A DNA stretch of 15,069 bases from a virus, in the IMG/VR virus record IMGVR_UViG_3300048080_000424, positions 1 to 15,069 of that record; one strand, given 5' to 3'. The notes beneath the pieces were generated by a model, which ran no database searches, was not told the origin of the DNA, and saw nothing but the letters and a program-made list of their open reading frames with translations. Of the stretch, positions 1-15,069 are shown one piece after another. Within the stretch, counting starts at the first letter, position 1. Every line of letters starts with the position of its first letter. The position numbers were made by a program, and so were the translations under genes.

Positions 1-127
1 TAAGGCGTTGGTGCTTGAGCGCTTCGGCATGGCGACCGAGTCGTCGCGTGAGCAGCACGTCGTTGCGCGCGTCGATATGCTGGTCGACTGGACAGTGGTT
101 GGCGAATCGTTCTGCGGCCGGTCGACC
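1..127. repeat. Terminal direct repeat, copy 1 (exact duplicate of 14943-15069); closure overlap
   Basis: Base-by-base comparison shows 1-127 (taaggcgttggtgcttgagc...ctgcggccggtcgacc) identical to 14943-15069. Unique unit length is 14,942 bp. Confidence 0.95.
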
Positions 128-238
128 TTCGTGCACGCGGTCGATCCGTTCGAGCGCAAGGGCCGCGAGGTGCGCTTCTGTCGTTTCTGTTCGAAGTGGG
201 GGCGCGTTGAGGTCTTTGCGTCCGGGGGCCGACGGTAG
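1..238 (+). CDS. 3' part of an 80-aa hypothetical ORF that spans the closure point (start ATG at 14938)
   Basis: The frame is continuous across the junction (ATG GCT AAG GCG TTG GTG ...) and ends at TAG 236-238. Third codon positions are mostly G/C and the composition is protein-like (MAKALVLERFGMATESSREQHVVARVDMLVDW...FCRFCSKWG). Its ATG overlaps the stop of the upstream ORF (ATGGCTAA). Position 1 is the third base of codon 2. Confidence 0.6.
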   Translation, partial: KALVLERFGMATESSREQHVVARVDMLVDWTVVGESFCGRSTFVHAVDPFERKGREVRFCRFCSKWGRVEVFASGGRR

Positions 239-242
239 AAGT

Positions 243-1121
243 ATGGGCGGACGCCGGCGGCAGCAGCTCGCGACCGTGGAGGTCATGGAGAAGTTCATCG
301 CGAGTAGGCGCGCGAAGAATCCGGGGTGTGATTCGTACGAACGGGCGCTGCGCTACTGCATCGGGAAGCTCGTTGCGGCGCACGAGTTCCTGCCGGATCG
401 GGTTGAGGACGTCGAGGCGGTGCTGGCGTCGATGAATGTGGGAGACGAGACGCACTACGACGTCTGGTTGGTGTTCCGGCGGATGTACGCGTGGGCGGCG
501 CGGCGGCTGGACGTGGTCGATGCTGCGTGCGAGATCGAGCGTCCGCGGCGCGACAAGCTGCGCGTGTTTCGCACGATCGAACAGGTTGATCTCGATCGTG
601 TGTTGTGGGTGAATCAGCGGCGCGTGAGGGACTACGCGATGCTCTTGGTTCTGGCCGATTGCGGCGCGCGGATTGGCGAGCTGCAGACGTTGACGGCGGA
701 ACGCGTGCAGCCCGGCTATCTAGTGTTGGAGGGCAAGACGGGGAAGCGCGAGGTGCCGATTCTCTCGAAGACGTTTGGTGCGCTTTCGCGGCTGCCGCAT
801 GGGTTGTGGGAGGCGCGTGATGGTGGGGAACTGGGTCTGGACGGCGCGAAGCGGGCTGTTCGCCGCGCTCTTGCGCGTGGTGGTGTTCGTGGTGGGCCGC
901 ACCTGCTGCGTCATACGTTTGGCCGGCTGTACATCAAGCGTGGTGGCGACGTGTTCTCTTTGCAGCGAATTATGGGGCACCGGCGGATCGAAACGACGAT
1001 GCGCTACGTGTACATGGACTTGCGGGACGTGAGCGAACAGCACCGGAAGTTCTCGCCGGTGGCCGGTGTGCACGAGGGCCGGCAGCTGTCGATGATGGAT
1101 GAGATGGAGGAGGTGGTCTAG
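243..1121 (+). CDS. int: Tyrosine recombinase / phage integrase
   Basis: ATG 243 lies 4 nt after the upstream TAG; an alternative ATG at 285 sits just behind GGAGG. The catalytic pattern occurs in the expected order: R in LADCGARIGEL, K in EGKTGKREVP, HLLRHTF (H-x-x-R), MGHRRIETT, and the Tyr in TTMRYVY. The 15-242 part of the tracked ORF overlaps the upstream gene out of frame and is R/S-rich shadow. Confidence 0.9.
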   Translation: MGGRRRQQLATVEVMEKFIASRRAKNPGCDSYERALRYCIGKLVAAHEFLPDRVEDVEAVLASMNVGDETHYDVWLVFRRMYAWAARRLDVVDAACEIERPRRDKLRVFRTIEQVDLDRVLWVNQRRVRDYAMLLVLADCGARIGELQTLTAERVQPGYLVLEGKTGKREVPILSKTFGALSRLPHGLWEARDGGELGLDGAKRAVRRALARGGVRGGPHLLRHTFGRLYIKRGGDVFSLQRIMGHRRIETTMRYVYMDLRDVSEQHRKFSPVAGVHEGRQLSMMDEMEEVV

Positions 1122-1762: not shown

Positions 1763-2007
1763 TGCCCGGGCTGCCGTGGTGGTGGCCGCTGGTCGCGGCG
1801 TGCGCGTGGTGGGGTCTGACGGGCTTCTACCTGGGCGTGCTGGCCGGCCAACGGTGGGACGCGCGCGGCTGGCTGTCTGGGTCGATGCGGCGGCGGTGGC
1901 GACGGTTCCGGGACGTCGCGCGGGTGGAGGGTGAGGCGCGTGTTGGCGCTGATTTCCGCTACCGATTCGCGGTCCGGCGGAAGCGACGAGGCGACCTTCG
2001 GGGCTGA
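1762..2007 (+). CDS. Small membrane protein (81 aa, one N-terminal TM helix, basic tail)
   Basis: ATG 1762 shares one base with the upstream TGA (TGATG). The sequence is MPGLPWWWPLVAACAWWGLTGFYLGVLAG followed by an R-rich tail. It is the last gene of the plus-strand unit. Confidence 0.5.
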   Translation: MPGLPWWWPLVAACAWWGLTGFYLGVLAGQRWDARGWLSGSMRRRWRRFRDVARVEGEARVGADFRYRFAVRRKRRGDLRG

Positions 2008-2040
2008 TTTTCGTCTAAAAATATGCCAATAAAAAAGTGA
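2008..2040. other. AT-rich island at the convergence point of the two transcription units
   Basis: attttcgtctaaaaatatgccaataaaaaagtga is by eye the most AT-rich stretch of the replicon. It reads TTTTTTATTGGCATATTTTT on the minus strand. The function is unknown; it could be a terminator T-tract, a DNA-unwinding element or a host-factor site. Confidence 0.35.
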
Positions 2041-2115
2041 GTGAAGGCCTCGGGCGGCGCGCAGCGGCGCGTCCTGCCGACGTCCTGGTGCAGCCTGAAG
2101 CGTGGCTTCGCGGCG

Positions 2116-2147
2116 ATAACGAAAGCGCCCGGGGCTGACCCGAGCGC
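2116..2147 (-). terminator. Probable intrinsic terminator of the minus-strand unit
   Basis: On the minus strand, GCGCUCGGG-UCAGC-CCCGGGCGC forms a 9-bp stem with one G-U pair (2125-2147). It is followed by UUUCGUUAU and starts 26 nt after the stop at 2173. Confidence 0.5.
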
Positions 2148-2172
2148 CTTCGCTGTTGGAGCGTGACGACCG

Positions 2173-2778
2173 TTACGATGCCTTCTTCGTTGACCAGTCG
2201 CAGTAGACGCCTTCGCCGAGCTTCTCTGGGCAGTACACGCCGGAGTGGTGCTTCGACTGCTTCGCCCGTCCGTGAACGGGACACTTGGCGTTGTCGACGT
2301 TGACGGGCGTGGCTTGTGGTTCGGCTACGGGCTCAGGGCGGAGCGGTGTTGGTGGTGGCGGCGCCGTGTTCGCCGCGCGCGCCGTCTCCTTCTTCGTCTG
2401 TGCTGCCTGTCCCCATGCGGGCCGGAACAGGTCAACGTAGCGCGTGCCGGCCGCGAACGTTACGTACTGGTCGAGGTTGCTGCGCGTCTCGTCCGGCTGT
2501 TCGTCGAACTTCGAGATCGACACGTTGAACAGCCCGGCGCGCGCGCACCAAACGACGAGTTCGTCAGGCATCTGTATCAGGTCGAGCGTCCGGTTGTTGC
2601 GCTGGATGAACCGTGCTCCGGTCCCAGTGGTCGAACCGTCGAGCTGGTCGAGCTTCTCTGAGTCGAGATATTCTTCGAGCTCGCTCTTGCACGCTTCGAG
2701 GGCCTTCTTCGACCGAACGTAGGTGCCGAGGTGGATGAGGGCGCTGGTGATCATTGCTTGTGCTTCTTGCTCCTTCAC
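2173..2778 (-). CDS. Hypothetical protein (201 aa) with helical N-terminal half and C-terminal Cys/His zinc-ribbon-like motif
   Basis: GTG 2778 lies 10 nt after GAGGAG. Composition is protein-like and third positions are G/C-rich. The C-terminus is KCPVHGRAKQSKHHSGVYCPEKLGEGVYCDW. The N-terminal half (LEACKSELEEYLDSEKLDQLDG...ARFIQRNNRTLDLIQMPDELV) vaguely recalls Gp157/Gam-like phage proteins, which is a weak memory-based impression only. Confidence 0.65.
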   Translation of the reverse strand: MKEQEAQAMITSALIHLGTYVRSKKALEACKSELEEYLDSEKLDQLDGSTTGTGARFIQRNNRTLDLIQMPDELVVWCARAGLFNVSISKFDEQPDETRSNLDQYVTFAAGTRYVDLFRPAWGQAAQTKKETARAANTAPPPPTPLRPEPVAEPQATPVNVDNAKCPVHGRAKQSKHHSGVYCPEKLGEGVYCDWSTKKAS

Positions 2779-2872
2779 GTTTCTGCTGCTCCTCTCGAAT
2801 GGCCGCGAAGTGTGCGGCGATGATGGCTGCGATCGTGATGACGAACATGATTACGCTGGCGTCGGTGAGCAT
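2564..2872 (-). CDS. Possible small membrane protein; only the first ~31 codons are unique, the rest overlaps the next gene out of frame
   Basis: ATG 2872 shares one base with the upstream TGA (TGATG) and follows GAAGGAAGGAG. The N-terminus MLTDASVIMFVITIAAIIAAHFAAI is a clean TM helix. From 2778 downwards the frame runs through the 201-aa gene and becomes R/P-rich shadow-like sequence. Confidence 0.35.
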   Translation of the reverse strand: MLTDASVIMFVITIAAIIAAHFAAIREEQQKREGARSTSNDHQRPHPPRHLRSVEEGPRSVQERARRISRLREARPARRFDHWDRSTVHPAQQPDARPDTDA

Positions 2873-3012
2873 CACTCCTTCCTTCTGCGCAGGTTGAGCA
2901 TCTGGCCGATCTCTTCGACGGTTTTATTGAGCGCTGCCCAGCAGCGCGAGCACCACGGAAAGCCGGTTTTGATGGTGGTGGCTTGGCGGCCGCAGACGCA
3001 GTTGAGTTTCAT
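2872..3012 (-). CDS. Small zinc-ribbon-like protein (46 aa; C-x-C ... C-x2-C)
   Basis: ATG 3012 lies 8 nt after AAAGGA and overlaps the upstream stop (ATGA). The product is MKLNCVCGRQATTIKTGFPWCSRCWAALNKTVEEIGQMLNLRRRKE. Confidence 0.55.
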   Translation of the reverse strand: MKLNCVCGRQATTIKTGFPWCSRCWAALNKTVEEIGQMLNLRRRKE

Positions 3013-3227
3013 GCTGCTGTCCTTTCTGTGAGCGCGAGCGCGAGCTGTTGTTTGGGGTGTTGCAGCGCGCCGAGCACCGTGCAGGCGTGCGAGACGCGAC
3101 ACGGACCGACCGCCCGCCCGGCCACCGTGACGCCGGCGAAGCAGGGCGCGCACCAGCGGCGGAGCGACGCGAGCGGCACCGCGAAGCGGTGACAGCACGC
3201 GCACGGACGGAAGAACGCCGACGCCAC
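3009..3227 (-). CDS. Small cysteine-rich protein (72 aa, 7 Cys)
   Basis: GTG 3227 lies 1 nt after the TAG of the upstream ORF, and the stop overlaps the next ATG (ATGA). The product is VASAFFRPCACCHRFAVPLASLRRWCAPCFAGVTVAGRAVGPCRVSHACTVLG.... Third positions are almost all G/C. This is only the last 72 codons of the 344-aa tracked ORF. Confidence 0.45.
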   Translation of the reverse strand: MASAFFRPCACCHRFAVPLASLRRWCAPCFAGVTVAGRAVGPCRVSHACTVLGALQHPKQQLALALTERTAA

Positions 3228-3228
3228 G

Positions 3229-3525
3229 CTATGCCGCTGGTGGGAGCGCGCAGCCGGAGCAGCGCGTGCTAAGGCAGGACGGGCAGAGACCGGCGACCGC
3301 GACTTGTGCCGAGCGCAGCGCTGCGGCCGCCGGTGGGAGGCCGGCGGTGGCGGCGCGAAGGCCGCCGACCAGCCGGCACACGGAACACACGCCGGACGCC
3401 AGGTACGGCGACGGGGAGCCGCAGCGGACGCACGGCGAGAGCGGGAGACAGAGCCAGCAGCCGGAACCGCGACAGTGGGCACAGGCCCGAAGACAGACAG
3501 CGCAGGTGCAGGAGGTGAGTGCCAT
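3229..3525 (-). CDS. Cysteine-rich protein (98 aa, 15 Cys, seven C-x-x-C pairs)
   Basis: An internal ATG at 3525 is preceded by GAAAGGGG about 9 nt upstream. The product is MALTSCTCAVCLRACAHCRGSGCWLCLPLSPCVRCGSPSPYLASGVCSVCRLVGG...GLCPSCLSTRCSGCALPPAA. It includes one exact DnaJ-type C-x-x-C-x-G-x-G (CAHCRGSG). Third positions are G/C-rich. Confidence 0.5.
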   Translation of the reverse strand: MALTSCTCAVCLRACAHCRGSGCWLCLPLSPCVRCGSPSPYLASGVCSVCRLVGGLRAATAGLPPAAAALRSAQVAVAGLCPSCLSTRCSGCALPPAA

Positions 3526-4331
3526 GTGGGAGACCCCTTTCTGGATTGCAACCCCCGCCCCCGGACGGGGACGGCGAGCGCGTGGGCGACAGGGCCGGCG
3601 CACGCGAGCGCGGCGTCGGAACGCCGGTCGGCGTGTAGCGCGCGCGTGCCCGAAGCGCGCCGAAGGGGGGCGCAGGGCCGCGTATAATTAGCCCTGTGCC
3701 CGCGCGTGTAGCCGGACCCCCGAAGGGCGGGAAATGTGAGGGCGCGACTCGTGGGCGCGCTACCTGGTGAGCGGCGCGACGGCGCGTGAGCCGAGCCCGA
3801 GCCACGGCCACCTTTGCGGTTTAAGGGCTGTGCCGACCGCCAACAGGAGGTGCCTGTGGGGCGGGTGAGGCGAGCGAAAGAGGGGAACGAAGGGTGTTTG
3901 ATTGGGTTCAGTCGTTCCGTGGCGGTGAGCGCGCCTGAGAGCGGGCTGGGGGCACGCGAAAGGGGCGCCTGCGTACGCGGGTGAGCCGTACGACGCCGAC
4001 GTGCGCCGTGAGGCGTCGAGCGACGGGGGCCGCCGCCGGCCACAATGGTTCCCCGCTGAGAGAAGGGCCAGGCGGCGGGCCGGAGCGAAGGTCGCGGCGG
4101 CGTGGTGCGGCGGGTGAGGGTGGACCTGGGCCGGTGGGTGTGCAGACGGAGGCCCGCGAGCGCGTGCGCGCGCCGGTGGTGTGCCTGCCCGTGGGCGGCG
4201 CGAGCCGCCGAGGTGCGAGGTGGAGGCGTGGCGCTGAAGCCATACCCCTGAGTGGAGCGTCTGGGCCTGCTGGTGGTGGGTGTACGGGGTGGCCGTGGTT
4301 GTGCGAAGGCGCGCGAGGCAGGGGCCGGTGG
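3526..4331. other. 805-bp ORF-poor, G-rich (plus strand), hairpin-rich gap downstream of terL; function unknown (pac/cos, ori, ncRNA or decayed gene)
   Basis: No ORF here combines a start codon with protein-like composition. There are many short stable hairpins and recurring GTGAG / CGAAGG motifs. Details are given in the findings. Confidence 0.5.
3668..3701. promoter_or_regulatory. 11-bp stem displaying an AT-rich loop that contains a perfect TATAAT (plus strand, 3683-3688)
   Basis: GGGCGCAGGGC (3668-3678) pairs with GCCCTGTGCCC (3691-3701) with one G-T pair. The loop is cgcgTATAATta. This is the only AT-rich island in the gap. Confidence 0.4.
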
Positions 4332-5720
4332 TCAGCGTCCGCGGGCGACGCGGTGTTCGTGCTGCTGGGCGGCGTGGTTGGTGAGCGCCAACGAGATGAG
4401 GTAGTCGTCGTGTCCTTCGCTCGGGTCGAGGTAGAAGTTCATGAAGCCGCCGGGCAGGTAGTCGGCGCGCGCGAGTCGGAGTTCGCTCCAGAGTGTGCGC
4501 GACGCGTCGTCGGCTTCGTCGAGTTCGAAGAGCTTGAGGTGCCCGGTGATGGCGGCCTGCTGGAGGTCGAAGCCGAGTAGCGATTTCGAGGGGCGGGTGA
4601 ACTTCACGGCGTTGATGGTGGTGCGCTGGTGCACGCCGCGTGCGAGCAGAGCTGCGGTGGTTTCGCCGATGCCGGTCGCGTCGATGGTGAGCGTGTCGGG
4701 TCGCCACACGTCGTTGATGATGGAGAGGAGTTGGGGGATGAGGATGGCGTGGTCGGTGCCTTGCCACGAGAGCGCCTGTAAGACGGCGACGTGGTTCTGG
4801 GGGACGGGCTCGGCCTTTGTTGGGTGGGTGACGGCGGCGAAGGTGAGGACGGTACGGTCGTGGGCTTCGGGTCGGTCGTCGTCGCCGCCGGCGATGTCGA
4901 GACCGGCGACGATGCGAGCGGTGGGCGGGCGCGTGTCGCGCCGTGGCCAGTCGCCGCGCAGCTGTTCGAGCACGGTGGCGCTGAACAAGCGGCCCTTGCC
5001 GGGCAGTTGCTGCATTTCGTACTGCGTCGTGAACATGGGGTGGGTGGGGCCGAGACGAGCGCGTTCGGCTTCGACGTAGGTGCGGTACGTGGGGAGGTGG
5101 GTAGCGACGATGGTCCAGGGCACGATGAAGGAGCGCTGGATGCCGTCGCGCTGTTGCGCGCGCTGCGCGGCTGCGCGTTCGCGTCCGAGTAGGTCGAGCT
5201 CGGACCAAGGTGTGCCGTAGAGGATGGTCGTGGCGTTGTTGGCGGCGGCGAAGGGTTTGATTTCCTTGTCGTACTTGTCGATGGCGACGTCCTGTGCTTC
5301 GTCGATTTCAAGGAGCGGGTGTGCGGTGTGGCCGACGATGTTGGCCGAGGGTTCGGCGCTGAGGAAGGTGACGCGTGCGTCACCGACGCGGATGATGCGG
5401 CCGTCTTCGACGGCGTAGGGGACGTTGCCGGCGCGGAGGATGTCGCGCAGGCGGTCGCGCGAGAGCTTGACCTGGGGGTCGAGGGTGGGCGCGACCTTGA
5501 TGCAGTTGATGGGTGTGGGTGGTAGTGCGAGGTGGGGGTGGTGTTGTTGGAGGAGTACGGTCGCTTCGAGTGTGGCGCTGGTCTGGTTCTTGCCGGACTG
5601 GCGCGCCATTTCGAGGGTGAAGGTGAGGCCGAGGCCGAACTGTACCGAGTCGATGATGGCACGGGCGGGGGCGAGTTGGTAGGGCCGGAGCGGTGGGATG
5701 CCGCCGCCGTTGCTGGTCAC
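4332..5720 (-). CDS. terL: Terminase large subunit
   Basis: The product is 462 aa. It has a Walker A-like MARQSGKNQTS, a Walker B-like PLLEIDEAQD and a coupling-like ILYGTP. Nuclease-domain acidic motifs are VAGLDIAGGDD, TIDATGIGE and GHDDYLISLAL. The GTG start overlaps the portal stop (GTGA). Confidence 0.9.
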   Translation of the reverse strand: MTSNGGGIPPLRPYQLAPARAIIDSVQFGLGLTFTLEMARQSGKNQTSATLEATVLLQQHHPHLALPPTPINCIKVAPTLDPQVKLSRDRLRDILRAGNVPYAVEDGRIIRVGDARVTFLSAEPSANIVGHTAHPLLEIDEAQDVAIDKYDKEIKPFAAANNATTILYGTPWSELDLLGRERAAAQRAQQRDGIQRSFIVPWTIVATHLPTYRTYVEAERARLGPTHPMFTTQYEMQQLPGKGRLFSATVLEQLRGDWPRRDTRPPTARIVAGLDIAGGDDDRPEAHDRTVLTFAAVTHPTKAEPVPQNHVAVLQALSWQGTDHAILIPQLLSIINDVWRPDTLTIDATGIGETTAALLARGVHQRTTINAVKFTRPSKSLLGFDLQQAAITGHLKLFELDEADDASRTLWSELRLARADYLPGGFMNFYLDPSEGHDDYLISLALTNHAAQQHEHRVARGR

Positions 5721-7039
5721 GCCGGTGTGGTGTTGGTGATGTTCCGCTGTTCGTCGAGCCAGCGGTCGAACTCGGCGTCGGCGTTGTCGATGCCGCCGAG
5801 CGCGTCGGCTGCGAAGCGCCGGGAGTGCACGCCTGCGGCGACGGCCGCGAGCTCGTTTGAGACTTCGCGGTCGCGGTCGGTGGGTAGGACGCTGCCCCAG
5901 TCGATGGTGTGGTTGACGAGGCCGAACGCGGTGCCGGTGAACTGGTCAAGGAGCGAGAGGATCATGGTGTTGCGGTCGGTGTACGCCTGGGTGCGGATGA
6001 TGCGCTTGCGCTCGACCTTCTTTACGAGCGGGTCGAGGTCGAGTTCCAGCGCGACGCCGGAGAGTTCGCGCGTCGTGTCGCCGAAGGCGGAGCGGGGCGT
6101 CTCGGCGAGGTCGTACATGGTGCGGTAGAGCGCGGCGAGGTAGTCACTGTGTAGGCGGACGCCGCCGCCGGCGAGGAGGTCGAGGAGGTAGGCTTTGGTT
6201 TCCTTGGGGATCTCCCACACGGCGCCGGGCTTGACGGCGATGTCCTGCGCTTCGTCCATGCCTTCGAGGACGGCGATCGGGTTGCCGCTGACCTCCATGA
6301 TGAGCGAGAGCTGCGACAGCTCGCGGTTGAGTTCGGTGAAGGTGTCGAGTAGGGATTCGAGGTCGGACGTGCCCCAGACGTGCTGGGGCTCGCGTATGTT
6401 CGGGAAGATGACGAAGGGGATGAAGGGGTAGGGGTTGTTGCGCGCTTCGAGCAGGGTGTCGTTGAGCCAACGTTCGTAGGTGTCGAGCGTCCAGGCTTCG
6501 ATGATGGTGTTCGACGCCTTGACGGCCGCGCCGGGGAAGAAAGGCGCGGCGTCGTCGGCGTTGAGCGTGTAGCGGTTGGCGATGCGCCAGACGCGCGAAG
6601 GATCGTCCGGCCACGTCCATTGGAAGATGTTCGCGGGGTCGGGGGCGCTGATGCGTACGCGCTGTTCGGTGTCCGACCACCAGATCTTGTAGGCGGCGTC
6701 GCCGAGCACCGCGCAGTCGAGCTCGGTGTCGAAGTCGAGTGCGGGTGCGGCGTTCTGGTCCCAGACCTGGTTGATGGCGAGTTCTGCTTCGGCGGCGCGG
6801 GCCTTCGCGTCGTCGGAGTCGTCGTCGGGTTCGACAAGAACCGTGCGTCCGGTCATGAGCGCGGCGGTGGTCTTGTGGACGATGGGCCGGGCGTAGTTGA
6901 ACGTGAGGCGGCGCGGGTCGCGCTGGCGCTGCGTCGTGCCCCATTGCTTGCCGTTGTAGAAGTCGAGGTGCTTGCGGTACGTGTCGAGGCGCGTGCGATC
7001 GCGGTTGCGCAGCGCGGCCGGTAGGGTGGCGACGGCCAT
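5717..7039 (-). CDS. Portal protein (SPP1 gp6-like pattern)
   Basis: The product is 440 aa. ATG 7039 lies 9 nt after AGGAGG. Motifs seen are FYNGKQW, FNYARPIVHKTTAALM, GTSDLESLLDTFTELNRELSQLSLIME and LSGVALELDLDPLVKKVERKR. It lies directly upstream of terL. Confidence 0.85.
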   Translation of the reverse strand: MAVATLPAALRNRDRTRLDTYRKHLDFYNGKQWGTTQRQRDPRRLTFNYARPIVHKTTAALMTGRTVLVEPDDDSDDAKARAAEAELAINQVWDQNAAPALDFDTELDCAVLGDAAYKIWWSDTEQRVRISAPDPANIFQWTWPDDPSRVWRIANRYTLNADDAAPFFPGAAVKASNTIIEAWTLDTYERWLNDTLLEARNNPYPFIPFVIFPNIREPQHVWGTSDLESLLDTFTELNRELSQLSLIMEVSGNPIAVLEGMDEAQDIAVKPGAVWEIPKETKAYLLDLLAGGGVRLHSDYLAALYRTMYDLAETPRSAFGDTTRELSGVALELDLDPLVKKVERKRIIRTQAYTDRNTMILSLLDQFTGTAFGLVNHTIDWGSVLPTDRDREVSNELAAVAAGVHSRRFAADALGGIDNADAEFDRWLDEQRNITNTTPA

Positions 7040-7055
7040 GTGCTGCGGCCTCCTG

Positions 7056-7205
7056 TTAGCTGGTGGGCGTTGGCGTTGTTGGCTTCGCTGCGGCGCGCGG
7101 CTTCGGCTTCGCGGGGATGAGCTCAGCGTGACAGTTGGAGCAGCTGCGCTCGTCCTGTTCGAGGATCACTTTGGTGCGGCAGCGGTCGCAGAAGACGCCG
7201 CTCAC
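7056..7205 (-). CDS. Small zinc-ribbon protein (49 aa; C-x2-C ... C-x2-C) between capsid and portal genes
   Basis: GTG 7205 lies 2 nt after the capsid stop. The product is VSGVFCDRCRTKVILEQDERSCSNCHAELIPAKPKPRAAAKPTTPTPTS. It is not in the ORF track because it is too short. Confidence 0.5.
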   Translation of the reverse strand: MSGVFCDRCRTKVILEQDERSCSNCHAELIPAKPKPRAAAKPTTPTPTS

Positions 7206-7207
7206 GG

Positions 7208-8173
7208 TTAGTTCGTCCAGGCGGCTGAGCTGATGCCGTCGAGTCGGGCGAGCGCTTGCGATTCGCGGAGGGCGATCGCGGTGTAGGCCTTCACGCGCCA
7301 GCGGTTGGCGTCTTTCGTTTCGAGGGTACCGACGCGTTCGAGCTGGATGATGCGTTCGAGGTCGTCCTGTGCTTCGGGGTCGTCGGCGCTGATGCCGAAC
7401 AGGCCGGCTTCGTCCATGCGGAGAGCGAAGATGGACGATGCGGTGCTGCCGGTCTTGGCGCTGAACGCGCCGCCGGAGATGGCTTCGACGTCGCCGATGA
7501 AGTCAGCGGGGAGGATCGGGATGTCGCTGTAGAAGCGGACGGGGCGGTTGATGCCTTGCAGGCTGGAGAGCGCGAGGTCCCAGCCTTGCGAGCGCGCGAG
7601 CGCCTGGATGCCGCGGATGCTGCGGCGGCTGGCGATGAGGACGGTGGGCCGTGGGCGGACGAGGTCGATGAGCTGGTCGAGGAGTGAGAAGCTGCCGGCG
7701 CCGGGGATGGTGGTGGCGCCTGCGTGCACCTGCTGGCCCGTGACGTCGTCGCTGATGATTTCGTGCAGGCCGTCGAACTGGTTGGCGTCGATGTCGATGC
7801 TGCCGTAGATGGCGGCGTCGCCCCAGGTGTCGGCGAAGTTGCGGGCCTTGATGGCGATCAGCTCGGCGACGAGGTCTTGGTCTTTGCTGCGCGTGATGGC
7901 GAGGAACTTGTCGATGTCGGCGTCGCCGATGAGTATCTTCAGGGCGAGGACGATCTGCGTGGTTGTCGGCACGCCTTCGGTGACGGTGCCGCCTGCGGCG
8001 ATGAACGTCGGCGCGGAGGCGGCGTTCTCGCGCTGGTATTGGAGCGCGTTACCGCGCACGGGGACGAAGGGCAGCAGGCCGAGGAGCGGGTTCGCGTCCA
8101 TGCTCGTCTCGGCGACGCCAACGAGAACCTGGTTCGTGCTGTACTTGTCGGCTTCGGCAAGGGTCAGGGCCAT
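7208..8173 (-). CDS. Major capsid protein (HK97-fold type, no delta domain)
   Basis: The product is 321 aa. ATG 8173 lies 7 nt after AAGGAG. It sits after a scaffold-like gene. The N-terminal pattern LTLAEADKYSTNQVLVGVAE...LLGLLPFVPVRGNALQYQRE and the internal FDGL are typical of this capsid family by recollection. Confidence 0.8.
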   Translation of the reverse strand: MALTLAEADKYSTNQVLVGVAETSMDANPLLGLLPFVPVRGNALQYQRENAASAPTFIAAGGTVTEGVPTTTQIVLALKILIGDADIDKFLAITRSKDQDLVAELIAIKARNFADTWGDAAIYGSIDIDANQFDGLHEIISDDVTGQQVHAGATTIPGAGSFSLLDQLIDLVRPRPTVLIASRRSIRGIQALARSQGWDLALSSLQGINRPVRFYSDIPILPADFIGDVEAISGGAFSAKTGSTASSIFALRMDEAGLFGISADDPEAQDDLERIIQLERVGTLETKDANRWRVKAYTAIALRESQALARLDGISSAAWTN

Positions 8174-8177
8174 CGGG

Positions 8178-8594
8178 CTACTCCTTCATTCGGGCGAGGC
8201 CGACTGCGATGCGGGCTGCGCCGCGCGTGCCTTCGGGTACGGCGTCGTTGTCGCGTGCGGGCGCTGCGGCCTGCGAGGGGATGGTGGTAGGTGGGGGTGT
8301 CGTGGATGGGTCCGGCGTCGCGTTGGCGCTCGACGCCTTCACGGCGTCGGCGACCTGGCGCGCGACGGTGGCGGATGCCTTCACGGCGGCGATGGTGTCG
8401 CCTGCGATTGCGTCGGGCGGGATGTCGGCGTTGGCCGCGCGGGCCTGCGCGAGGAACTCGGTGGTCGCTGCGACGTTTGCTTCGGTGGCCGTGGCGAGGA
8501 GCTTCTGCGTTTCGTCGAGGGCGGCGGCGGCGCTGTCGCCGGCGTCGGCCTTCGCCCGGAGGTCTGCGAGTTCGGTGTCGTCGACTTCAGTCAC
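8178..8594 (-). CDS. Scaffolding-like protein (138 aa, Ala-rich helical, acidic N-terminus)
   Basis: The start is GTG. The product is VTEVDDTELADLRAKADAGDSAAAALDETQKLLATATEANVAATTEFLAQARAA.... The call rests on its position immediately upstream of the capsid gene and on composition. Confidence 0.55.
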   Translation of the reverse strand: MTEVDDTELADLRAKADAGDSAAAALDETQKLLATATEANVAATTEFLAQARAANADIPPDAIAGDTIAAVKASATVARQVADAVKASSANATPDPSTTPPPTTIPSQAAAPARDNDAVPEGTRGAARIAVGLARMKE

Positions 8595-11496: not shown

Positions 11497-12129
11497 TTAG
11501 ACGGGCCCGGGGTCGGTGGTTTGCGAGCGCAGCCTGCCTCCGGCGGGCGTGTAGAGCTGTCCGGTGCGGAGCGTGTTGGCGACGGGGAGGTCGCGCAGCA
11601 TCTTTCGGAACTGGGCGAGGCGCTGTTCGCCGAACTCCTGGTACTTGCCCCAGACGTTGTCGCCGCCGACGTTGATGCGGTCGGTGGCGAAGGACGCTGT
11701 GTCGAGCGCTGCGTAGCCGGCGGCGCCCACGGCGATGATGTCGTCGTGGTGGGCGGGGAACGAGATCGTGCCGTTGATGGTGTGCTCCTGGTGGAGGAGG
11801 ATGTTGACGGTCTGGATGCTGCCGGGTGGGGTGGCGACGTCGAGCGTGATGTTATCCCCGAACAGGCTGAAGGGGACGTAGGCGGGTGGGTATTCGTTGA
11901 TGGGCCACTCGACTGCGACGATGCGGATGCGTGGCGTGGTGGGGATGCTGATGATGCGTGAGCCGGCCGTGGTGGCTGCGGCGGCGAGAACTTCTTTGGG
12001 CGAGACCTGCGAGTAGTCGCGGAGGGCGTGCTTGATGTGGCGGTCGAGCACGGCGTCGGTCCAGCGAACGTTGGTTTCGTCGTGCAGGTCTTGTTCGACT
12101 GTGGCGCGGATGGTGGCGAGTGAGCTCAT
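11497..12129 (-). CDS. Head-tail adaptor/connector-like structural protein (210 aa)
   Basis: ATG 12129 overlaps the upstream stop (ATGA). The N-terminus MSSLATIRATVEQDLHDETNVRWTDAVLDRHIKHALRDYSQ resembles gp6-like connector N-termini. The call is also based on its position among structural genes. Confidence 0.35.
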   Translation of the reverse strand: MSSLATIRATVEQDLHDETNVRWTDAVLDRHIKHALRDYSQVSPKEVLAAAATTAGSRIISIPTTPRIRIVAVEWPINEYPPAYVPFSLFGDNITLDVATPPGSIQTVNILLHQEHTINGTISFPAHHDDIIAVGAAGYAALDTASFATDRINVGGDNVWGKYQEFGEQRLAQFRKMLRDLPVANTLRTGQLYTPAGGRLRSQTTDPGPV

Positions 12130-12839
12130 GGCGTGCGTGCCCTCCGTGGGCTGCGCGGCCGCGCTCCGGGTGCACCGAAGGAGGGGCGGTGTGGAACGCG
12201 CGGCCGCTGCGCCCCGATCGGTTGCAGCGTAGCACGTCGTTGTTCGATGCCGCCTTCGAGCGGGTCGTAGTCGACTTCGAGGTACCAGATGTTCGAGCCG
12301 TACTCGCGCGAGCGCCAGGCGAACTGGTGGTTGACGAGGGGGTTCTCGTCGTTCAGGCGCGTGATGATGCTGAGGATGCCGGCGCGGTTGGCGAGCGCGT
12401 CTTCGACCAGCGGTTTGAGGCCGGTGATGGAGTGCCAGCCGGTGGCGGTCGCCTCGGTGTAGGTGAGCTTTGCAGGCGGGCCTACTTCGTCCACGTCGCC
12501 GCCGAAGGTGACCCAGGAGCCGACGCCGTCGTACTTCTTCGAGGTGACGCCGAGCTCGGTCCATTCGTCGGGGCGGGTGCAGCGCATGAGGACGGCCTGT
12601 ACGCCGCCTGGGTTGATGATGTCGAACATGTAGCGGTGCAGGGAGGCGGCGTTGATCGTTTTTGGGTCGATGACGTTGAGGTCGAAGTTCGCGATCGCGC
12701 GGTTCCACGAGAGCTTGAGGCCGCCGAGGTAGGTGGCGCGGTGTACGCAGTAGAGTTCGGTGCCAAAGTTCACGTCCTGCGTCGCGCCGATGCCCGAGAG
12801 AAACGAATCGATCGTAGGGGTGATCTCGACGGTCGTCAC
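12126..12839 (-). CDS. DNRLRE-domain-like protein (237 aa), possible receptor-binding/tail accessory
   Basis: GTG 12839 overlaps the upstream stop (GTGA). The segments IDSFLSGIGATQDVNFGTELYCVHRATYLGGLKLSWNRAIANFDL...INAASLHRYMF and ...GWHSITGLKPLVEDAL...FAWRSREYGSNIWYLEVDY match the DNRLRE-domain layout as I remember it. The last ~45 codons are R/P-rich with weaker third-position G/C. Confidence 0.45.
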   Translation of the reverse strand: MTTVEITPTIDSFLSGIGATQDVNFGTELYCVHRATYLGGLKLSWNRAIANFDLNVIDPKTINAASLHRYMFDIINPGGVQAVLMRCTRPDEWTELGVTSKKYDGVGSWVTFGGDVDEVGPPAKLTYTEATATGWHSITGLKPLVEDALANRAGILSIITRLNDENPLVNHQFAWRSREYGSNIWYLEVDYDPLEGGIEQRRATLQPIGAQRPRVPHRPSFGAPGARPRSPRRARTP

Positions 12840-13282
12840 GCCGGCGGCCGCTGCTTCATCTGGCGCTGCGCGTCGGCGAGGTCGATGACGAAGAGCCAGT
12901 AGCCGACCTCGCCGGTGAGCTGGTTGTAGCCGATGTCCTGTACGTCGCCTTTGAACTGTTCGGTGATGCGTTCGAGTAGGCGGCGATCGTGGATCTCCAT
13001 GTCGCCTTTCGTGAAGCCGCGCGCGAGTGATTCGTCGATGCAAGCGGCGACCAGGTCTTGGGCGAGCCGCCAGTTCGGTGGGTCGGTGGCGACGGCGCCC
13101 ATGTGCACTGTGTCGCCGGCGTCGGGTAGCAGGAGCGTCGCGGCGCCCTTTGTCGTGCCGCGTGCGTCTGCAACGATCACGTGCAGGGCGTGGCGGTTCT
13201 CGGCGATGCCTGGTAGCAGTTCGCGCACGCGGTCGCGGTCGGCGGGGCGTTCCTTGCGAATCACCGGCGCCACCGGAGCCAC
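12836..13282 (-). CDS. Hypothetical protein (142-148 aa) with weak GNAT-fold-like layout
   Basis: The start is GTG 13282 or, more in keeping with the local pattern, GTG 13264, which overlaps the upstream TGA (GTGA). The segment IRKERPADRDRVRELL...HVIVADARGTTKGAATLLL...VHMGAVATDP...LVAACIDESLARGFTKGDMEI resembles an acetyltransferase fold. It lacks the R/Q-x-x-G-x-G/A motif. Confidence 0.5.
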   Translation of the reverse strand: MAPVAPVIRKERPADRDRVRELLPGIAENRHALHVIVADARGTTKGAATLLLPDAGDTVHMGAVATDPPNWRLAQDLVAACIDESLARGFTKGDMEIHDRRLLERITEQFKGDVQDIGYNQLTGEVGYWLFVIDLADAQRQMKQRPPA

Positions 13283-13404
13283 CCGTTGAGGATGCGGGTG
13301 CAGTAGGCGAGGCCGAGCGTGACGGCGGCTGTGACGCCGACGGTGAGCGCGTTGCTGATGATTTGCACCTGTGCGTCTGTGAAGAAGTTCTGGCAGGTTT
13401 CCAC
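13261..13404 (-). CDS. Small single-TM peptide (47 aa)
   Basis: GTG 13404 lies 1 nt after the upstream TAA. The product is VETCQNFFTDAQVQIISNALTVGVTAAVTLGLAYCTRILNGWLRWRR. Third positions are G/C-rich. It is not in the ORF track. Confidence 0.4.
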   Translation of the reverse strand: METCQNFFTDAQVQIISNALTVGVTAAVTLGLAYCTRILNGWLRWRR

Positions 13405-14186: not shown

Positions 14187-14266
14187 CAGGTCCCGGAGGC
14201 AGCGCCTTCGGAGGGAACCAGCGGGGGTCTGCCGATATACTAGCACCTGCGTGCTAGACGGTCACC

Positions 14267-14319
14267 TGGAGCGGGAGAAGGGGCTCGAACCCTCGACCCT
14301 CTGCTTGGGAAGCAGAGGG
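14267..14319 (-). other. attP core candidate: 3' half of a tRNA-Gly(CCC), from anticodon arm to CCA; not a complete tRNA
   Basis: The minus strand reads CCCTCTGC-TTCCCAA-GCAGAGGG (anticodon arm, anticodon CCC), then TC, then GAGGG-TTCGAGC-CCCTT (T arm), then CTCCCGC-T-CCA (acceptor 3' strand, discriminator, CCA). No GCGGGAG 5' acceptor strand or D arm lies upstream. Confidence 0.7.
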
Positions 14320-14332
14320 TGGAAAACGTTGT

Positions 14333-14355
14333 CCTTCTGCTGTAGTAGCAGAGGG
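14333..14355. repeat. Second copy of the anticodon-stem inverted repeat with a different spacer
   Basis: The plus strand reads CCTTCTGCT-gtagt-AGCAGAGGG here, against CCCTCTGCT-tggga-AGCAGAGGG at 14297-14319. AGCAGAGGGT is repeated exactly, 36 bp apart. Confidence 0.5.
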
Positions 14356-14374
14356 TCGTTTCGCTTCTGAGGTG

Positions 14375-14447: not shown

Positions 14448-14945
14448 ATGCCGGAGCCTGTTCGTCGGCTAACCGACGGCCATCAGCCGCCGCTCGTTCG
14501 TTCGATTCCTGGTGGCTCACGCGCGCGATCTGAACGAAGTGATCTGAACGAAAGAAAGAGTGAAAATTCGTTCCTTCGTTCCTTCCCTCAGATCGTTCCT
14601 TCAGATCGGCCGCGCCCGCGGCGGCGTTTGACGCCGACGGGCGCGCGGGTCGCGCGTTGGCTGGAGCGCTGGGTCCCTGTGGAACGTTACGACGGGCCGG
14701 TGCACACGCTGCCAGAGGGCGACGCGACGTTCTATGGTGCGCGCGGTTTTCTTCTCTGCTACGGCGAAGAGCTGGTGCTGACGGCGTTGGCGGACCTGTT
14801 CGTTGATTACGATCCGGAGACCGTCGAGTGGACGTTGCCGCGCGGCGCCCGCTGGCGTGTTCGGTGCTGGCGTCCGGAGATCTATCACCCGGCGCGTTAC
14901 CTGAACTTCTACGTGAAGCAGCTGCGGGGGCTAGCCGATGGCTAA
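14448..14945 (+). CDS. Hypothetical protein (165 aa); N-terminal third doubtful
   Basis: A strong SD, AAAGGAGG, lies 4 nt before ATG 14448. The C-terminal ~105 aa (ARWLERWVPVERYDGPVHTLPEGDATFYGARGFLLCYGEELVLTALADLFVDYDPETVEW...) has G/C-rich third positions. The first ~60 codons have weak third-position bias and contain the GATCTGAA dyad. An in-frame TTG at 14628 is an alternative start without an SD. Confidence 0.55.
   Translation: MPEPVRRLTDGHQPPLVRSIPGGSRARSERSDLNERKSENSFLRSFPQIVPSDRPRPRRRLTPTGARVARWLERWVPVERYDGPVHTLPEGDATFYGARGFLLCYGEELVLTALADLFVDYDPETVEWTLPRGARWRVRCWRPEIYHPARYLNFYVKQLRGLADG
14526..14608. promoter_or_regulatory. 83-bp imperfect palindrome carrying four GATCTGA(A/G) sites around an AT-rich centre
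   Basis: GATCTGAA occurs at 14527-14534 and 14541-14548. Inverted copies are CTCAGATC at 14587-14594 and TTCAGATC at 14600-14607. The dyad centre is at about 14567 in gagtgaaaattcg. TTCGTTCC occurs in tandem at 14567-14582. Confidence 0.5.
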
Positions 14946-15069
14946 GGCGTTGGTGCTTGAGCGCTTCGGCATGGCGACCGAGTCGTCGCGTGAGCAGCAC
15001 GTCGTTGCGCGCGTCGATATGCTGGTCGACTGGACAGTGGTTGGCGAATCGTTCTGCGGCCGGTCGACC
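14938..15069 (+). CDS. 5' part of the 80-aa closure-spanning ORF (continues as 1-238)
   Basis: ATG 14938 overlaps the TAA of the 165-aa ORF (ATGGCTAA). The ORF runs off the window end in frame and resumes at position 1. Confidence 0.6.
   Translation, partial: MAKALVLERFGMATESSREQHVVARVDMLVDWTVVGESFCGRST
14943..15069. repeat. Terminal direct repeat, copy 2 (exact duplicate of 1-127)
   Basis: Same comparison as copy 1. An ORF reads straight through the closure point. Confidence 0.95.

Follow-up and report, generated by a model that had tools for sequence, protein, structure and literature searches.

Comparative evidence for a chain of three genes encoding small cysteine-rich proteins in a 15-kb temperate tailed phage

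According to our analysis, the three short, cysteine-rich open reading frames (ORFs) that follow one another on the minus strand of the virus record IMGVR_UViG_3300048080_000424 (the window, analysed over its whole length of 15,069 nucleotides) are very probably real genes for small proteins. Together, ORF1, ORF2 and ORF3 hold 26 Cys in 216 codons. A first-pass annotation made from the sequence had drawn attention to them, and its counts, sizes, cysteine numbers and motifs were all reproduced here, as were the junctions that it drew (TAG-n-GTG and ATGA) and the G/C-rich third codon positions (GC content at third positions, GC3, of 0.79 to 0.82). With much less assurance, and only as a tentative preference, we favour the fuller statement that these are coupled genes in a non-structural operon and that their products would bind metal together with nucleic acid or a partner protein. 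They are best described, as far as sequence comparison goes, as a putative new sequence family that belongs to a broad and familiar class, the zinc-finger micro-proteins of prokaryotes and phages, and the results point to no new mechanism.

The operon that contains the three ORFs is present in five contigs or lineages, namely the window, L001 (identical to L016 to L019 in this region), L020, L014 and L015, the last of which is a short, truncated contig; ORF1 was compared in the first four. The TerL proteins of L001, L020 and L014 are 90%, 59% and 55% identical, respectively, to that of the window. Comparative support comes from these four lineages, and the ratio of nonsynonymous to synonymous substitution rates (dN/dS) from one pair only, the window and L001. 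In this pair, dN/dS is 0.27 for ORF1, 0.34 for ORF2 and 0.29 for ORF5, the gene of a 201-residue protein that closes the chain, compared with 0.18 for TerL. Of the five other frames in these alignments, four have values of 1.3 to 2.7, and the antisense frame that shares third positions gives 0.41 to 0.55; third positions take most of the substitutions. The two ORF1 sequences differ by insertions or deletions (indels) of 3, 6, 21 and 72 nucleotides (nt), all multiples of three, and end at the same TAG; the two ORF2 sequences differ by a single 9-nt indel and start at the same position, the window with GTG and L001 with ATG. All of the aligned cysteines are kept (11 of 11 in ORF1 and 7 of 7 in ORF2), and the C-terminal third of ORF1 (residues ~55 to 98, with 4 Cys) has been lost from this closest relative by in-frame deletions.

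In L020 and L014, the DNA of the Cys-rich chain can no longer be aligned to that of the window. Both lineages keep the layout, consisting of a Shine-Dalgarno (SD) sequence and start codon, an ORF of 59 to 71 residues with 9 to 10 Cys, and a coupled ORF2. The SD sequence AG(A/C)AAGGGG and the start before ORF1 are conserved in four lineages, and in each lineage examined the stop codon of ORF1 adjoins or overlaps the start codon of ORF2, as TAGcGTG in L014, as a GTGA overlap in L020 and as ...GCA TAG c GTG GCG... in the window, where ORF2 starts 1 nt after the stop of ORF1. ORF2 and ORF3 of the window are joined by an ATGA overlap (...GCAGC ATGA AACTC), with GAAAGGA as the SD sequence of ORF3, and ORF3 overlaps the membrane ORF that follows it, ORF4, by TGATG. 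A fusion of ORF1 with ORF2 through frameshifting or read-through was rejected, the relative frame being +1 in three lineages and -1 in L020. Because purifying selection is specific to these frames, the indels are multiples of three, the cysteines are kept and the chain recurs in lineages that cannot be aligned, we regard ORF1 to ORF3 as genes and not as the Cys-rich shadow frames against which the first-pass annotation had cautioned. Frameshifts or stops in relatives, which it had suggested looking for, were not found, and the Cys positions are under purifying selection.

The opposite reading, in which there are no genes here and the three ORFs either are shadow frames in GC-rich DNA that does not code or belong to a longer ORF of 344 residues, has already been largely refuted by these comparisons, and we find it barely credible. 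It draws on composition: DNA of 73% GC often contains open frames, ORF1 to ORF3 are GC-rich at every codon position, and with GC3 of 0.81, 0.82 and 0.79 in ORF1, ORF2 and ORF3 (0.88 in the structural genes) and GC at second positions also high (0.64 to 0.75), composition alone separates the frames poorly. The log-odds from codon usage come out negative, as the training genes have almost no Cys (the structural genes contain only 4 Cys in 2007 codons), and gene callers draw none of the three ORFs as such. However, selection confined to one frame, indels restricted to multiples of three, conserved SD sequences, starts and stops, and protein motifs that are conserved where the DNA is unalignable all tell against a non-coding origin, and true shadow ORFs in the relatives look different, being rich in Arg, Gly and Trp with a GC3 of 0.35 to 0.5. 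Furthermore, the N-terminal 53 residues of ORF1 form the most Cys-rich stop-free stretch across the six frames of the window; in first-order Markov simulations with the region's own composition, at least 11 Cys occurred in 11 of 2000 runs and at least five CxxC pairs in none of 2000, and the Cys content of ORF1 exceeds chance.

The 344-residue ORF is a protein call of the source record (P0005, window positions 3009 to 4043, minus strand), of which only the last 72 residues, that is ORF2, are supported. The call extends ORF2 upstream, crossing ORF1 out of frame and then the non-coding gap; in L001 its upstream part is broken by seven indels that are not multiples of three, and it shows no coding signal. 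This ORF is spurious. In the L001 contigs, the whole interval from TerL to ORF5 is without gene calls, and in L014 a gene of 108 residues is called across part of ORF2 in another frame. Coding occurs in exactly the three frames that the first-pass annotation had proposed, which is a better model than the automatic call in the window or the absence of one in the sister contig. At 73% GC and with such Cys-rich coding, gene callers leave about 1 kb empty or invent a 344-residue protein. Owing to this failure, none of the real genes is represented as such among the roughly 15 billion predicted proteins in the collections, and surveys of small phage proteins that rely on homology will overlook families of this kind. 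ORF1 and ORF3 gave no match, their own products included, against 5.8 billion protein clusters in a word-indexed search, and when 1.84 billion representatives were searched in full with ORF2 by phmmer, the matches were the 344-residue call of the record and two repetitive unrelated proteins, and no others.

ORF2 is a true family. All five lineages share W25, C26, C29, C43, V45 and C49 without change, and the four that are complete also share C9, C11 and C12, which corresponds to a conserved core CxCC-x(10-12)-WCxxC-x(n)-C(R/S)V-x(3)-C. Local alignments scored against composition-preserving shuffles reach z values of 4.1 to 13.9 in all family pairs but one, the exception being L014 against the partial L015 fragment (z 2.5). 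In the same test, ORF3 matches the ORF2 cores at z 4.1 to 5.7, and it shares with L014 ORF2 a 26-nt stretch matching at 96% (WCxRCWAA); ORF3 is a paralogue of the ORF2 core. A counterpart of ORF3 with 48 residues is found in L020 (z 3.4), none is present in L001 or L014, and in L015 there is another zinc-ribbon ORF instead, which occupies a different place in the order and overlaps the start of ORF5. In L014 (9770 to 9961), the slot of ORF3 and ORF4 holds an unrelated, Cys-free ORF of 63 residues (MNAYVYILSEHGNYGDLW...) with an ATGA overlap with ORF2.

In ORF1, the N-terminal ~53 residues (11 Cys, five CxxC) are the conserved part and include the motif CxxCxGxGCxLCxPxxxC, followed by a lineage-specific, Ala/Pro-rich tail with two more CxxC pairs. 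Alignments of window ORF1 to the ORF1 proteins of L020 and L014 score no higher than those of shuffled sequences (z 1.5 and 0.4, respectively). ORF1 is conserved mainly by its position, start signal and Cys content, its sequence being kept only with the close relative. The motif CxxCxGxGCxLCxPxxxC recurs at the N terminus of L014 ORF2 (z 5.4), and L014 ORF1 resembles L014 ORF2 (z 4.0). These alignments show that one CxC(C)...(W)CxxC(W) mini-domain is common to ORF2 and ORF3 and has been multiplied in tandem, and they indicate that adjacent coupled genes have traded modules, which neatly illustrates the evolution of a micro-protein family. The chain lies where, in the words of the first-pass annotation, accessory or moron genes are often found. 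This description fits only the membrane ORF and ORF3, both of which are variable; ORF3 has lower GC at first and second codon positions and is missing from L001 and L014. ORF1 and ORF2 occur in all four lineages with the operon, behind a conserved leader, and they are not morons since, together with the gene of the 201-residue protein, they belong to the conserved core of the phage clade.

Among described proteins, the single-domain zinc-finger micro-proteins of Haloferax volcanii have fewer than 70 residues and a CxxC...CxxC layout (PMC6562870). ORF1 to ORF3 resemble proteins of this class in being tiny (46 to 98 residues) and often un-annotated and in their paired Cys knuckles, the roles of such proteins being usually regulatory or adaptor-like. 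They differ in being encoded by a phage as two or three coupled paralogous genes, in having CxC(C) as the first knuckle and in the 9 to 15 Cys of ORF1, and no sequence relationship to described families was found. ORF3 (CxC-x13-CxxC) and ORF2 (CxCC-x12-(W)CxxC, with x10 in L020 and L014) show the generic arrangement of zinc-ribbon knuckles, two CxxC or CxC pairs spaced by ~10 to 20 residues in a protein shorter than ~100 residues, and the knuckle cysteines are invariant across lineages.

The cysteine-rich domain of DnaJ, PF00684, has four CxxCxGxG repeats and two zinc centres. The motif called DnaJ-type in the first-pass annotation is indeed one exact CxxCxGxG, present as CAHCRGSG (residues 14 to 21) in ORF1 of the window and L001 and as CVLCGGFG in L014 ORF2. 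However, the likeness stops short of the domain: there is one repeat instead of four, it lies within the longer, clade-specific CxxCxGxGCxLCxPxxxC, the J domain and client-binding domains are absent, and ORF1 and its three counterparts have no Pfam match, PF00684 included, even at E<=10. Ogr and Delta, the late activators of P2 and P4, and Com, the translational activator of Mu, are Cys4 proteins of 60 to 75 residues that temperate phages encode and that regulate gene expression through binding to RNA polymerase or mRNA. ORF3 is comparable to them in size and layout (knuckle, 13 residues, knuckle, basic tail); here, instead of one regulator, there are several coupled paralogues, and no similarity was detected in a Pfam scan, the only search made in this respect. 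The Wbl [4Fe-4S] transcription factors are characterised by four invariant Cys in the ligand pattern C-x(n)-C-x2-C-x5-C and by a G[V/I]WGG turn that follows the last of them (PMC6282962). Like them, the products of ORF1 to ORF3 are small, basic, Cys-dependent and phage-encoded. A spacing that resembles the ligand pattern, C22-x2-C25-x5-C31 with further Cys upstream, occurs in ORF1 of the window and L001 and in L014 ORF2, though not in L020 ORF1. In contrast, G[V/I]WGG is absent from all ORF1, ORF2 and ORF3 sequences, PF02467 is not matched and there are many extra cysteines; moreover, Wbl proteins belong to Actinobacteria and actinophages, whereas distant relatives of the TerL studied here (33 to 37% identity) were found in metagenome-assembled genomes of Anaerolineae/Chloroflexota.

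As for function, we envisage an operon in which the leader is followed by ORF1, ORF2, sometimes ORF3, sometimes a membrane peptide, and then ORF5. The Cys clusters of ORF1 to ORF3 would bind metal, most likely as zinc knuckles or ribbons and possibly as iron-sulfur (Fe-S) sites; spacings of the latter type, such as C-x2-C-x5-C and C-x3-C-x2-C, also occur in the family. Coupling by termination-reinitiation or by overlap would provide the proteins in a fixed proportion, probably in equal amounts, and they may then act together as a small hetero-complex of basic micro-proteins that binds nucleic acid or a partner protein. Members of the family are basic, with isoelectric points (pI) of 7.6 to 11.5, mostly above 8.8, and 0 to 4 acidic residues. 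The complex could supply regulatory or accessory factors for the ORF5 protein, which has a CHCC site and is always encoded in the same operon as the Cys-rich ORFs across lineages, within a module for DNA transactions or gene control and not in the virion. Pfam and PHROG scans of the ORFs (those of the late strand at 11497 to 13404 were not scanned) found no helix-turn-helix regulator or replication protein, which makes ORF1 to ORF3 and ORF5 some of the few non-structural genes that could account for regulation, replication or takeover of the host in a phage of only 14.9 kb.

Several results weigh against this functional proposal. No tool returned functional evidence for the anti-defence, host-takeover or DNA-binding roles that the first-pass annotation had put forward as possibilities. 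Scans of ORF1 to ORF5 with Pfam, PHROG, NCBIfam and PADLOC gave nothing usable and no match in favour of a nucleic-acid-binding fold (PADLOC-DB gave no match at E<=1), and Pfam returned nothing for the counterparts in relatives either. Profile searches of the PDB with the ORF1 and ORF2 alignments returned nothing significant, an L37e zinc ribbon appearing at E 0.09, and a single-sequence AlphaFold2 model of ORF1 was not interpretable (predicted local distance difference test, pLDDT, 46.8). The gap upstream of ORF1 contains no repeated operator-like or iteron motif once multiple testing is allowed for. The products probably bind metal, as judged from motif patterns only, and their basic charge may merely reflect Arg-rich coding at high GC. 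ORF1 cannot be aligned between lineages beyond composition (z 0.0 to 1.5), which would fit a fast-evolving host-interaction protein equally well. Comparative support is, in addition, limited to four lineages and, for dN/dS, to that single pair.

The rival that we take most seriously, although we consider it rather unlikely, is that the ORFs encode host-takeover or anti-defence factors docking on a host protein such as RNA polymerase or its sigma factor, a nuclease or a defence sensor, in analogy to phage WhiB-like Fe-S proteins or zinc-finger binders of RNA polymerase. It would accommodate the very fast divergence of ORF1 across lineages with retention of its Cys content, the module swaps between ORF1 and ORF2, the gain or loss of ORF3 and the Wbl-ligand-like C-x2-C-x5-C of window ORF1 and L014 ORF2, as well as the clade-specific nature of the family, homologues of which were not found elsewhere in the collections searched. 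However, no PADLOC, Pfam or PHROG model was matched, the G[V/I]WGG motif of Wbl proteins is absent, ORF1 and ORF2 are core genes in all four lineages and not variable cargo, and dN/dS of 0.27 to 0.34 in the one pair compared indicates ordinary purifying selection with no arms-race signature. A more ambitious version, which we hold to be quite unlikely, would have ORF1 to ORF3 constitute a previously unseen, phage-specific family of zinc or [4Fe-4S] proteins and form a hetero-complex that reprograms host transcription or disarms a host nuclease or defence protein, a Wbl- or Ogr-like takeover device outside the known lineages, with Cys modules swapped across the boundary of the coupled ORFs and with expression gated by a structured leader that sequesters the SD sequence of ORF1.

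It is very unlikely, in our opinion, that the ORFs encode late, virion-associated basic peptides, produced by read-through from the structural operon and serving to package, condense or eject DNA in the manner of protamines or nucleocapsid proteins. The chain does lie on the same strand as the capsid-portal-TerL block and directly downstream of it, the stretch from TerL to ORF1 showed nothing resembling a terminator, and the composition is very basic and without acidic residues. However, an 806-nt non-coding interval with a conserved leader of its own separates the chain from TerL, the operon is shared with a membrane peptide and the non-structural-looking ORF5, and relatives with the order TerL-portal-scaffold-capsid have no such genes in their structural block. 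Metal or redox handling, with ORF1 as a metallothionein-like sponge or as a mini ferredoxin or Fe-S carrier, is highly improbable: the 11 Cys in 53 residues, the CxC and CxxC clusters and the CxxxCxxC and CxxCxxC-type spacings of window and L020 ORF1 would suit it, but the Cys spacing of ORF1 varies between lineages, the protein contains aromatic residues, models of metallothioneins and ferredoxins gave no match, genes for redox partners are absent from the 15-kb genome, and the core conservation of ORF2 and the coupling would be left unexplained. A metallothionein proper was rejected for ORF1, whose N terminus is 21% Cys but has W and Y and an unconserved spacing, with no match in Pfam or NCBIfam. 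A precursor of a Cys-rich ribosomally synthesized and post-translationally modified peptide (SCIFF/ranthipeptide type) was likewise rejected, with no NCBIfam or Pfam match; no maturase of the radical S-adenosylmethionine type or similar was found in the Pfam and PHROG scans of the genome's ORFs, again with the late strand at 11497 to 13404 unscanned.

Table 1. Positions and properties of the Cys-rich ORFs and of the features around them in the window
Feature	Position	Strand	Properties
ORF1	3229-3525	minus	ATG...TAG; 98 residues; 15 Cys; 7 CxxC; pI 8.8; no Asp/Glu
ORF2	3009-3227	minus	GTG...TGA; 72 residues; 7 Cys; pI 9.6
ORF3	2872-3012	minus	ATG...TGA; 46 residues; 4 Cys; CxC-x13-CxxCW, then basic helix-like tail
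ORF4	2564-2875	minus	one transmembrane segment (residues ~8-26), then Arg-rich tail over ORF5, out of frame
ORF5	2173-2754	minus	193 residues from ATG; 201 residues from upstream GTG at 2778
Leader	3526-3773	minus	conserved, non-coding; SD AAAGGGG 3534-3540; GC hairpin 3555-3574
Distal gap	3774-4331	minus	73% GC; patchy conservation; after TerL stop
TerL	4332-5720	minus	upstream of gap and Cys-rich chain

The gap between TerL and ORF1 (3526 to 4331, 806 nt) has a coding signal in no frame and consists of the two parts listed in Table 1. The leader is 89.5% identical to that of L001, with indels of 9, 1 and 1 nt, at a synonymous divergence (dS) of 0.5 to 0.6 in the flanking genes. Its hairpin lies ~15 nt upstream of the SD sequence, and both are kept in four lineages; in L014 the hairpin is followed by GGUUUUUC. 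A C-tract upstream is able to pair with the GGGG of the SD sequence. Folding of the leader reaches a z value of only -1.86, and the alignment fold is without covariation support (term +0.69). The distal gap is 75.8% identical to that of L001, with indels of 163, 5, 29, 1, 2, 61 and 4 nt, none of them a multiple of three. An RNA gene, a tRNA or an attP site in the gap was rejected, with no Rfam family and no tRNA match. An iteron origin was considered because of the pentamer CTCAC, with 8 occurrences observed and 1.85 expected; after correction for 1024 pentamers this is not significant, and the motif is absent from L014. A promoter and terminator scan of positions 2000 to 4500 found nothing.

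The ORF4 frame has a coding signal only around 2800 to 2875, and ORF4 has a counterpart in L001 and a version of 29 residues with only the transmembrane part in L015. Its Arg-rich tail of ~70 codons overlaps the start of ORF5 (2564 to 2778), and the overlapped part of ORF5 has 4 nt differences from L001 in 36 codons, compared with 27 to 40 per 36 codons downstream, a suppression of synonymous change that suggests dual coding or another extra constraint. The ORF5 protein is laid out as an N-terminal helix and an alpha/beta domain, a KKETARAA motif, a Pro-rich linker and a C-terminal CP.H...YC...YC. The Cys/His C terminus that the first-pass annotation had noticed in the 201-residue protein is borne out as a CHCC site (C158, H161, C175 and C185), which, together with KKETARAA, is invariant in the homologues, four only; L020 ORF5 carries extra CxxC...CxxC inserts. 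ORF5 has no family match in Pfam, PHROG, NCBIfam or PADLOC, an AlphaFold2 model from the four sequences was not interpretable (pLDDT 53.5), and a Foldseek search was empty. A Mu Gam- or Gp157-like end-binding protein was rejected as an identity for ORF5, no model having been matched.

At 14,942 bp, the genome in the window is complete and circular, with an exact repeat of positions 1 to 127 at 14943 to 15069. This 127-nt exact terminal repeat points to a circular or terminally redundant genome, the size of which is among the smallest for tailed temperate phages. By gene content it is a tiny temperate tailed phage, with an integrase (15 to 1121, plus strand), a TerS-like gene, tail genes and an amidase-like gene; scaffold, major capsid protein, portal and TerL were also identified. 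On the minus strand (4332 to 8594), the order is scaffold, capsid, zinc ribbon, portal and TerL, with TerL last, and L021 and L023 (TerL identity 43 to 45%) have the usual order TerL, portal, scaffold, capsid and zinc ribbon. The Cys-rich chain was not found in contigs with TerL identity of 45% or less, where gene order is also different, and no phage record in GenBank or INPHARED resembles the region of the chain.

This phage tends in general to encode micro-proteins with metal knuckles. Between capsid and portal (7056 to 7205, minus strand), it encodes a double-CxxC zinc ribbon of 49 residues, which is kept in L023, and after the integrase, on the plus strand, there are a CWCLSCGCTDxxAC...LCSSC protein of 79 residues (1122 to 1361) and a CRACG...HFEVC protein (~1280 to 1551), both conserved in L001. 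Finally, the segment at 14254 to 14360 resembles the 3' end of a tRNA, without a complete tRNA being found there by ARAGORN, and contains an imperfect 26-nt inverted repeat (14294 to 14319 and 14333 to 14358); it is intergenic, lies between the two transcription directions and is likely to be the attP region.

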